Source: Saprospiraceae bacterium
GTDB lineage: Bacteria; Bacteroidota; Bacteroidia; Chitinophagales; Saprospiraceae
DNA: 44,653 bases
NCBI GenBank assembly: GCA_043778315.1
Contig: JAYWGJ010000076.1
Location: 1-44,653 of the forward strand
Direction of reading: 5' to 3'
Within the stretch, counting starts at the first letter, position 1; each line of letters starts with the position of its first letter. Shown here in pieces: positions 18,001-21,000 of this stretch. Made by a program: the position numbers.

Positions 18001-21000
18001 AATTTTTGCAAAGATATATAATTTCTTTTTAAATATTATTTTATCGAGAATAAAATTTAAAACGAAGAATTTTTTTGTAAAATAATATTTTTTGTTCTAA
18101 CTAATAAATCATTTATTTACAATAAAAAATAATAGTATTACATTTGTAAACTACTTTATTTCCAAAGGCAGTAAATAAATTATAAAAGAAAAGTATTTTA
18201 TTTCCAATGTAATGTATTTTATTTCCAGATAAACCTTGAAGGTTTCCAAAGAAATGTTTTGTATTTCCAAAGAAAGTAAGCAGATTTCCAAAACAATATT
18301 TTAGTTTACAATAGTAATATTTTAGTTTATAATAGCAATTTTTTGAATTATAATAAAAATAATAATTATTTTACAATAAAAATAATAGTTTTATTTTGCA
18401 ATATAAAATATTAGCAATACATTTGCAAAGTATTTATATACAAATAAACAGTTGCCTAATGCAAACTAATAGTTACCAATATAAAACTAACAGTTGCCTA
18501 ATGTAAATCAATGTTTGCCTAATGTAAATCAATGTTTGCCTATTATAAATCAATGTTTGCCTATTATAGGTTGATAGTTGCCAAAATAAATCCCTTAGTT
18601 ACCATAAATAAATAATTTCCTCACAACTAAATTTTATTATCATGCCAGATTTTGTAAAAACAGATGCGCAGGGTTTTTCTACCCAGCTCCAAAATGCCGC
18701 TACCAAAGCGGTGCAGCACGCCACCGTGCTTAACCTGCAACAAAACCACCTTGATGAACGCGCCAACGATGCGGCGTATTTTGAATGGACATACAATGTT
18801 TGCCACAGCATTCACAAGAAAAACTTAGAGGCAACAGCGTATTACGAACAATTGCGCTCGCCGTCGGCTAAGTTTTACGGGCAGCCATTAGGCAATGCGC
18901 CCATTAACTTTACTTTTCCACCGCAACCCGTTGTTGTTGCGGTGGACGTAGAAGGGCGGTTTCGGGCTTTTGCTAAATACTGTAAGGCGCAAGCTAACTA
19001 TACCAACTCAATCGGTTTAGACCTCGGCATAGTCGCCGTTGCTGCTACGCCGCCAAACCTCGCTACCATGAAACCTACCATAAAAGTAGCAATAGAAGCA
19101 GGTTCGGTAAGCATTCGCTACACCAAAGGTAAGATGGAAGGTATTGAGGTGTTTAAAGACACTGGTAGTGGCTTTGCGCTAATTGGCGTGGCAACGGCAG
19201 GTAGTGTTTTTATTGACAAAACCGCCATGCCGCCCTACAATTCGCCAGCCGTTTGGCAGTATAAAGCCATTTATCGCTATAAAGGCAATCAAGTAGGTGT
19301 GTATAGCGACTTGGCGGTCATAACTGTAATGAACGCGGTATAAAAGTGCGACGAAATGCTGTTCCGTCGTATGTATTAACAAAACAGCGTTACGCTGCAA
19401 TAAAAAAACGCCACGTCTCTACCGAAGAGTAGAGACGTGGCATTTTTGTTTTGGTAATAATTATAATTATTTTGTAACTATTTACTGCGGCTTCGTTTCT
19501 TTTCGCAATAGTAATTCTTTGCGAAAGCCCTGCAAAAACTCGTCTAAGTTGTCAAAGTCGCGGCGATACGAACCGCCCACACCCCAACGATATTGAAAAG
19601 TAGAAGCAATCGTTTGCTCGGGACGCGCGTAGGCGCGCAAGCGGTATCTACCATCAGGCGTGATGAGGTATTCCATCATAAAGTTACCACCAAAATATGT
19701 TTGGCTGGTCGCCTGCCCGTTTTGGCTGCCAATATCTACGCTCCCGCCAATGTCCACCAATAGGCGGTCTTTGAATAGCGCGTTTTTCAAGCCGACTTGC
19801 ACTTGGCTGTTTTGTCCAAACGCTCCTCCCCCACTCGCTGCCGCAGCAGGCGAAGTCTCACCCGTTGTACCCGTGCCGCCAGCATTTGTGAGCGCGTCGG
19901 TTGCATCATACATCTTGTAGTTAAACGCAAAATTAACGCTAGAAAGCACTCCCCCACCGTTGTTTTTAATTACGTCACTCAATATATTATTGACATAATT
20001 AGAAAGTTGATTAGAAAGGACTTCGGTGAGCGTGTTAATTCCACCCGTCGCAATGCCGTTGCCGCCGCTCACCAAACCGCCCGTCGCGGGCAAGAAGTTT
20101 TGCAACACCATTAGCCCAAAAACCTGACGGTTCATCTCGTTCGGGTCTTCTTCCAATATGCGTTTCTTGGTTTCCCAATAGGTTTTGAGGCGTGAATCAA
20201 TGTTCGGCATATCCACATGAAAGGAAATATCGGGTTTTAGCAAGCGTCCGCGCAAGTCCATGAGCAAAGCAACCTCGGTGCTTTGACGCGCCGTAGCGGA
20301 GAGGTTGTTGTTCGAGGTGTATTCTTGTAGAATCTGAAAGGGCGCAACGCGCAGGTTTTTATATATTGCGGTGAGGTTGATGTCGGCATCGTAAGGCGCG
20401 CCGTCCCATACTATCGTGCCGCCGTCTTGCACATCAAACGGCTTATTGATAAGGCTCTGATAAGTAAAAAGATAGCTTCCGCGCTTCACCGTATATTTTC
20501 CGCGCATCGCAAACTCACCAATACGCCGCAAATCAAGGGTAATGTTGCCGTCGCCCTGACTCGTCATTTTCTCCCCCGTGTTTTCATCAAAAACTAGCTC
20601 GAACTGCGCTTTCGGATTAATATTGAGCGTCATTAAAAGGTTTAAACCCTTCGGTTCTACTTTTGCGCGCTGACTGCTACCCACGGCTACACGTTTCTTT
20701 TTGACTATATTTATGGAGTCGGGGCTAACAAATTTGATAAAATTGACTGCGCCCACGTCTCGCGCTTCGCGAAGCGGAAAGACGATACGGGTCTGCTCGT
20801 CGGTGGTAGCGCGAATATCCATGTCGGTATAACCGAACAAACCAGAAATATCGATGCTCACGTTTTCGCACACGCCTTTACCATAAAAAGTAGAGTTGTC
20901 GCCTTGTTGCGTATCGAGCAGCAGGAATTTTGCGGCGGAAATACTTAGATTTGGACCAAAATTTTTAAAGTGGTCATGTGTAATTCCGCCTTTTAGAAAG

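Follow-up and report, generated by a model that had tools for sequence, protein, structure and literature searches.

A 21-bp-phased repeat array around a promoter, upstream of an uncharacterised Bacteroidota protein family, as a putative control element

The stretch of DNA analysed here (the window) comprises the 44,653 nucleotides of contig JAYWGJ010000076.1 from a Saprospiraceae bacterium (assembly GCA_043778315.1, forward strand). Between a divergent Tc/Rhs-type operon and a gene encoding a 233-aa protein it contains a region of about 20% G+C that is occupied by back-to-back 21-bp units, running in a single register through an embedded promoter, and the period and position of these repeats recur upstream of most of the distant relatives of that gene that were examined. 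The array looks like a conserved control element that has gone undescribed. The explanation that we tentatively prefer is that its units are protein-binding sites on DNA, phased with the helix, which would control the embedded promoter and be tunable through their number.

The first-pass annotation of the window had described the region as built of 21-bp-phased degenerate repeats and had named formal autocorrelation as the analysis under which such a period might disappear. The period persisted: between positions 18060 and 18641 the match fraction at lag 21 was 0.58 (z = 12.5 against shuffles), with harmonics at lag 42 (z = 11.5) and lag 63 (z = 10.1), it was present separately in each of three sub-regions, and the same 21-bp arrays were recovered independently with Tandem Repeats Finder. 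Laying out the sequence in 21-bp lines yielded one register for all 27 units of this copy of the element (copy B; Table 1), in which A occupies unit positions 11 and 12 in 24-25 of the 27 units and rarer bases also keep their places, namely C4 in 17 units and G9 and G20 in 12 each. These rare bases at fixed unit positions indicate that the three sub-families distinguished at first pass are variants of one core, TTnCnAAnGnAA. Their coordinates required some revision. For sub-family 1 the five starts originally listed (18201, 18222, 18243, 18264 and 18285) do mark the beginning of TTTCC, and a further unit at 18159 had been overlooked; exact TTTCCAAAG is found in just three of these six TTTCC units. 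The starts assigned to sub-family 2, 18305 and 18326, were 10 nt off and hit a TTTAC part of the unit, the true AATATTTTAGTTTACAATAGT starts being 18295 and 18316. All eight copies of the GTTGCC-type sub-family 3 were recovered, three of the proposed starts being wrong by one (correctly 18451, 18472, 18493, 18514, 18535, 18556, 18577 and 18598). Within the window, unit motifs are confined to this array and to a second copy (copy A).

The promoter had been proposed to form where two units meet, and this is what was found: TTTG (18395-18398), N19 and TACATTTG (18418-18425) straddle two neighbouring units and match perfectly the -33/-7 consensus of Bacteroidota promoters. Sixteen of the 27 units of copy B lie upstream of this sole strong promoter and would therefore not be part of a transcript initiated there; eight units follow the promoter before the ATG at 18642 is reached, on the same strand as the gene. 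The leader RNA of copy B shows no excess of structure over its shuffles (z = +1.0, and z = 0.8 in a second computation), which leaves the structured leader contemplated at first pass unsupported, and no terminator-like site occurs between the end of the array at 18620 and the ATG. The suggestion of strongly curved DNA is unsupported as well, since neither copy displays 10.5-bp phasing of AA/TT dinucleotides or of A-tract centres and the related arrays described below are G+C-rich, reaching 56% G+C.

Copy A is about 80% identical to copy B, lies on the same strand and shares its unit profile and its 21-bp period (z = 11.9 at lag 21). The alignment of the two copies contains one internal gap only, of exactly 21 columns, i.e. 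one whole unit, and the best-conserved blocks are the unit at 18187-18207 (21 of 21 positions) and the promoter (40 of 42). Copy A is placed between convergent genes and no open reading frame (ORF) follows it; judging from its sequence, the hairpin located 3' of this copy could serve as terminator both for a copy A transcript and for the convergent gene 11156-11647. Both copies are also carried by a near-identical strain (L001), whose 760 bp preceding the gene are free of substitutions relative to the window but lack one 21-bp stretch (18525-18545), and another assembly (L002) shows at least three perfect units followed by a scaffold gap. The whole-unit indel in the former and the extra perfect units in the latter indicate that unit number varies in the population; a unit count differing between close strains is the mark of a variable-number tandem repeat. 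Contigs of several assemblies tend to break inside such arrays.

The gene downstream of copy B is the only one that travels with the array. Its 233-aa product had no match in Pfam, NCBIfam or PHROGs and no sequence match in PDB. A word-indexed search detected three close relatives only, and a full HMMER search retrieved 1034 cluster representatives at E <= 1e-3, 395 of them at E <= 1e-10; the family members are nearly all of about 230 aa, and the named sources include Sporocytophaga myxococcoides, which has three paralogues or more, and metagenome-assembled genomes of Cytophagales. An earlier AlphaFold2 run with 4 sequences only gave a predicted local distance difference test (pLDDT) score of 54, and a 42-sequence alignment gave a model with a pLDDT of 89, in which a helical N-terminal region, with residues 34-72 forming one long helix, precedes a sandwich of seven strands at the C-terminus. 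Fold searches with this model returned fibronectin-type-III (FN3)-like domains only, the PDB matches being limited to that domain. Isoelectric points (pI) within the family lie between 4.9 and 9.5. As modelled, the protein offers nothing that would point to nucleic-acid binding and nothing that would exclude it either.

Ten further loci of this family, whose proteins are 25-59% identical to that of the window, were compared, making 11 independent loci with the window included, and autocorrelation was computed over the 700 bp upstream of each family gene. Lag 21, together with lags 42 and 63, was at or level with the autocorrelation maximum in nine of the 11 loci, and in most of them the distance from array to ATG was 37-99 nt. 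The unit sequences are unrelated among loci, even for the paralogues L009 and L015 on one contig, a recognisable shared piece (CCKAATGT) being kept solely in the closest relative, L006 (59% identity). Therefore, the conserved property is the 21-bp period and the position of the array. The loci with arrays sit in unrelated genomic contexts, which bears on the initial proposal of a divergent control region: the promoter is indeed within the array, but the array is not specifically shared with the Rhs operon, since it accompanies the 233-aa gene family through these different surroundings and copy A has neither the Rhs operon at its left nor a gene at its right.

The units of most relatives contain a dyad, with perfect 7-bp arms in L015 and arms of 4-7 bp in L009, L014, L017 and L022. 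On either strand, the folding of these dyad arrays is far stronger than that of shuffled versions (z from -2.6 to -12). The window arrays, that of L006 and a solo array of L009 lack self-complementarity (z >= 0) and are direct repeats only. Given that folding differs between loci, the common denominator is again the period and not hairpin potential. Mismatches within the dyad arms of the relatives are G-T in 31 cases versus A-C in 20. In L019, differing palindromes follow one shared register. The sole conserved upstream block in the three Sporocytophaga paralogues is promoter-like (CTTGC, about 20 nt, TAAnATTGA) and is located downstream of the array; going by this arrangement, these arrays are probably not transcribed with the gene. 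Motif-based promoter placement yielded no confident sites outside the window. Arrays of 21 or 42 bp also occur away from family genes, about five of them, copy A included, in about 167 kb (about 150 genes) of flanking DNA scanned.

Several features adjoin the arrays of individual relatives. The solo array of L009 is overlain by an ORF of 182 aa that has a 7-aa repeat and is probably spurious. At positions 5518-5625 of L015, 4.7 copies of a 23-bp palindromic unit, ACCGTATAAATACGGTAACCCTC, lie upstream of a -7-like box, TAACTTTG, at 5647, and the 21-bp array of this locus is found downstream of that box. A LytTR response regulator (L006, 1257-1991) is encoded directly 3' of the family gene and a divergent 96-aa helix-turn-helix-like ORF (L017, 5318-5608) adjoins the array; both are candidate trans-factors, not conserved across loci.

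Table 1. Positions of the arrays, promoters and neighbouring features in the window, and arrays at related loci.
Feature	Position	Strand	Description
Copy B of the element	18054..18620	+	27 units in one register, core TTnCnAAnGnAA
Sub-family 1	18159..18305	+	TTTCCAAAG type, seven units, 42-bp super-period
Sub-family 2	18295..18368	+	AATATTTTAGTTTACAATAGT type units
Promoter of copy B	18395..18425	+	Bacteroidota type: -33 TTTG, N19, -7 TACATTTG
Sub-family 3	18451..18620	+	GTTGCCTAATGTAAATCAAT type, eight units, presumed 5' leader
Family gene	18642..19343	+	233 aa; predicted N-terminal helices and C-terminal FN3-like sandwich
Copy A of the element	10441..10944	+	24 units, no gene downstream
Promoter of copy A	10739..10770	+	TTTG, N20, TACATTTG
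Hairpin 3' of copy A	10986..11031		Perfect 20-bp stem, T-runs on both strands
Divergent Tc/Rhs-type operon	13437..18011	-	SpvB-like ORF 17241-18011; RHS/FG-GAP ORF 13437-17030
L006 upstream array			Unit CCGAATGnnTTnCTnAAAACnA
L009 upstream array			Unit TATCAATATTATTGATAATAA
L014 upstream array			Unit CAATAATGTTATTGGGCTTTC
L015 upstream array			Unit TTTCTAAAGGGCTTAGAAACC, 8 units; 23-bp array farther upstream
L017 upstream array			Unit CTGAGCGGCTCAGCAAGCTTG
L019, L020, L022 (Sporocytophaga) upstream arrays			14-17 units each
L009 solo array	L009 14100-14680		27 units, TCACATTGC core, then terminator
Further 21/42-bp arrays not adjoining a family gene (related Cytophagales genomes)	L014 1270-1530; L015 1-196

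In the explanation that we prefer, the sigma-A-type Bacteroidota promoter would be embedded in about 27 degenerate binding sites, which together would constitute a cis-regulatory DNA array. The sites are exactly 21 bp apart, that is two helical turns, so that every site would be presented on the same face of the helix. A DNA-binding protein would load cooperatively along that face and occupy both flanks of the promoter, over about 340 bp on the upstream side and about 190 bp on the downstream side, its occupancy setting the expression of the 233-aa gene. Slippage or unequal exchange would add or remove whole units with the helical phase preserved; with the number of sites adjustable in this way, the array could provide a heritable means of tuning. 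That a protein binds, that it does so cooperatively, whether it represses or activates and which protein it is are points that we infer.

Five observations lead us to favour phased binding sites on DNA. The register is uninterrupted over about 570 bp and across the promoter in both copies despite strong divergence of the units, and such continuity through a promoter matters for the geometry of DNA, not for RNA; the majority of the copy B units precede the only strong promoter; the promoter-like block of the three Sporocytophaga paralogues is downstream of the array; every indel seen is a whole unit and keeps the helical phase; and the units of many relatives are operator-like dyads with strand-symmetric folding energies, such dyads resembling, by analogy, the operators of dimeric proteins. 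The rare G and C at fixed unit positions in both copies, the unstructured leader RNA and the family-wide occurrence of the period with unrelated unit sequences also support this explanation. On the other side of the balance, no candidate binding protein turned up, and the model of the family protein (pLDDT 89) contains no known DNA-binding fold; the pI of the family covers a wide range. The unit sequence differs at every locus, those of the same-contig paralogues included, which would call for a multitude of specificities or for recognition of DNA shape by the protein. Two family loci, L011 and L025, are without an array in the upstream region scanned, arrays also exist away from family genes, the window units are not dyad-symmetric, and promoter positions at the other loci are motif guesses only.

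Alternatively, the array could be a minisatellite with little sequence-specific function, made and maintained by replication slippage and serving at most as a spacer or leader of variable length, in which case the 21-bp period would go back to the founder unit and not to selection. The polymorphism invites this explanation: unit number differs between near-identical strains in the absence of substitutions in 760 bp, perfect units precede the gap in L002, assemblies break inside the arrays and other 21/42-bp arrays are found elsewhere in related genomes. The deeply conserved period and position contradict it, since the same period stands upstream of paralogues only 25-35% identical with unrelated unit sequences, and the handful of other arrays among about 150 flanking genes compares with nine of 11 family genes. 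Moreover, units within an array are strongly diverged, yet register and specific rare bases are kept, a sign of old arrays under constraint, and the window copies, about 20% diverged, still retain both register and promoter; we regard a minisatellite as unlikely. Far less probable is an iteron-type replication origin or a partition centromere. Iterons and parC, as found on plasmids and phages, are phased direct repeats beside a rep or par promoter, and the array resembles them in its direct repeats with a spacing of about 21-22 bp, in its A+T-rich surroundings and in enclosing a promoter. However, it is surrounded by chromosomal genes (TamB, ParE/GyrB-like, PurA and a sigma-70 gene), the adjacent gene encodes no Rep, ParA/ParM or ParB/ParR domain, BLAST gave no plasmid or phage match for either DNA or protein, and several arrays occur per genome, two of them within 8 kb here. 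A unit of 21 bp spans two turns of the helix, which would fit intrinsically curved DNA, or seven codons, which would fit a coding heptad repeat, and over the arrays of L017 and L009 ORFs with 7-aa repeats were placed by gene callers. We give these hardly any credence: curvature is at odds with the missing 10.5-bp phasing in either copy and with the G+C-richness of related arrays, and coding with stop codons in all six frames in the window arrays, L019 and L022. For the window, these observations already contradict A-tract curvature and coding heptads, both copies having stops in all six frames. Sub-families 2 and 3 are just about 71% complementary, and a long-range inverted repeat formed by the two was likewise discarded.

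The other main rival, which we hold to be about as unlikely as a minisatellite, is that the array acts as RNA, its transcribed 21-nt units binding the downstream-encoded protein or another RNA-binding protein. The units would then be a 5' leader in copy B and a stand-alone RNA, an extra pool of repeats, in copy A, implying either autoregulation or a pairing of the type III toxin-antitoxin or sponge kind. The order promoter-repeats-gene in copy B and promoter-repeats-terminator without ORF in copy A, the -7 box upstream of the 21-bp array in L015 and the terminator behind the solo array of L009 are in line with this, as are the paralogue-specific repeat sequences, reminiscent of cognate ToxI/ToxN pairs (PMC3401426), and the placement of several family loci amid defence or toxin genes (restriction-modification, HEPN, zeta toxin, extracellular contractile injection system, Rhs). 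But 16 of the 27 units would escape transcription from the only strong promoter, the Sporocytophaga promoter-like block follows the array, no terminator separates array and gene in the window, and the window leader is without structure. In the related arrays there is neither a sense-strand folding bias nor a clear G-U excess (the 31 versus 20 mismatches mentioned above), and units of 21 nt in numbers of 8-27 fall outside the type III range given below. In addition, the protein is not ToxN-like, and PADLOC gave for the family just three isolated marginal hits, each to a single member (E of about 0.003-0.007). One may go further and imagine a bipartite system, widespread in Cytophagales and so far unrecognised, made up of the array and the helical-plus-FN3 protein, in which each paralogue reads its cognate repeat as DNA or RNA. 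Improbable as we consider it, such a system would have a fixed 21-nt footprint, a protein fold not met before and a repeat geometry that is likewise new; its logic would be analogous to that of type III toxin-antitoxin or centromere/adaptor pairs, and copy A and other solo arrays would serve in it as decoys or extra antidote.

Around these elements the window holds other repeats and genes. The Tc/Rhs operon is regarded here as a neighbour of the array. Copies A and B are direct repeats that flank the entire 7.1-kb Tc/Rhs cassette (11156-17927), which may have been inserted into, or be excisable from, an ancestral array through recombination between them. Inside the 5' end of the SpvB-like ORF, for which a TTG start at 18011 was called, four perfect GCTCCTT heptamers are found on the minus strand (17932-17960), followed by a signal-peptide-like stretch; a nearby ATG at 17927 is out of frame. 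The four copies are likewise present in L001. Since gain or loss of a heptamer would throw the ORF out of frame, these repeats could switch the Tc/Rhs operon by phase variation. A REP-like hairpin repeat of 42 nt, TGTTCCGACGTGCG..GCCAAAACGCTGTTTTGGCACACT, is present as two tandem copies just before copy A (10341-10424), once just after ORF 18642-19343 (19360-19401) and once after ORF 32559-33596 (33611-33652). A second intergenic repeat family, rich in TGTTCAC/TATTCAC, occupies positions 1-157, 3309-3348, 9985-10262 and 27914-27959 and includes a 37-bp tandem array at the window start (4 copies, 93% matches). Finally, a 68-nt direct repeat (27276-27343 and 27755-27822, 84% identical) points to two side-by-side paralogous small ORFs.

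An exact-pattern scan for the promoter core over genome and metagenome contigs returned a single match, L005, which is a chance occurrence inside a phage terminase gene; protein-based locus searches of genome contigs and viral contigs found nothing, nor did a pattern for two adjacent sub-family 3 units in viral contigs. Neither the element nor the protein resembled plasmids or phages by BLAST, and in Rfam the window had no match at gathering score and only chance-level eukaryotic matches at E < 1. The literature searched contains no description of such arrays, nor of the protein family, so that the initial statement that no element of this sort had been described still holds. If the array is functional, it would represent a conserved architecture that preserves a physical period of 21 bp instead of a sequence and is tied to a gene family of over 1000 sequence clusters, represented in neither Pfam nor NCBIfam. 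It would thereby offer a handle on an uncharacterised Bacteroidota protein family and a natural case of promoter tuning by copy number that preserves helical phase, and elements of this type would be findable by their period instead of by a motif. The arrays also explain why metagenome assemblies break at these loci. Should the RNA or cognate-pair explanation be true, a new class of repeat-plus-protein module would have been met, which might relate to defence.

The closest known counterparts are found among phased binding sites. The iterons of theta plasmids and the parC and sopC centromeres consist of 17-22-bp units about two helical turns apart that are bound cooperatively on one face. With its 21-bp period (z = 12.5) the array conforms to the iteron pattern of 17-22-bp direct repeats spaced about 22 bp apart, and it shares with the three of them the promoter in or beside the repeats and the variable unit number. 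Unlike them, it is flanked by the 233-aa family gene and the Tc/Rhs operon and not by initiator or partition genes, its surroundings are chromosomal and of housekeeping type, and several arrays occur per genome, each with its own sequence. Among operators, ARG boxes are 18-bp palindromes placed 21 bp centre to centre, and LytTR sites are 9-bp direct repeats with a 12-bp spacer, the LytTR consensus being [TA][AC][CA]GTTN[AG][TG] in paired 9-bp repeats 12-13 bp apart. The 21-bp centre-to-centre spacing and, in related arrays, the palindromic units recall both, and sub-family 1 in the window is built of a 9-mer and 12 bp; nevertheless, known operators comprise 2-4 sites as against 9-27 and the motifs depart from the ARG and LytTR consensus. 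A LytTR-regulated promoter was rejected, the 9-mer TTTCCAAAG being without the GTT core and the sites numbering 27, not 2; no regulator of either kind is found among the window ORFs, and among the family loci a LytTR gene adjoins the homologue in L006 only. Contingency loci such as hmw1A of Haemophilus, with 7-bp repeats upstream in association with the promoter, are alike in that unit number shifts between close strains and that the repeats surround a promoter or leader. The units here are far longer and degenerate, and it is the period, not the sequence, that is conserved family-wide.

With type III toxin-antitoxin systems (toxIN, cptIN and tenpIN) the array shares the succession of a promoter, tandem short direct repeats and then a gene of about 150-290 aa (PMC3401426). 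The repeats lie directly 5' of the protein gene and on the same strand in the window (eight units) and also in L015, their sequence is specific to the protein variant, and several family loci are found among defence or toxin genes. However, type III repeats are of 31-62 nt in 1.9-5.6 copies (Table 2 of PMC3401426) and the units here are of 21 nt, with 27 of them in copy B and 8-17 in relatives. Most window units are upstream of the promoter, a terminator hairpin between array and gene is absent in the window and none is obvious in L015, L017 or L019, and the predicted protein fold is helical plus FN3-like and not that of the ToxN/AbiQ endoribonucleases. Membership in the type III class was rejected because unit length and number, the absent terminator and the protein fold lie outside the published criteria (PMC3401426). 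Taken together, the general kind of arrangement, phased repeats around a promoter, is already known from iterons, centromeres and tandem operators; what is new is a family-wide 21-bp period with free sequence, an array size of 9-27 units and the link to an uncharacterised helical-plus-FN3 protein.

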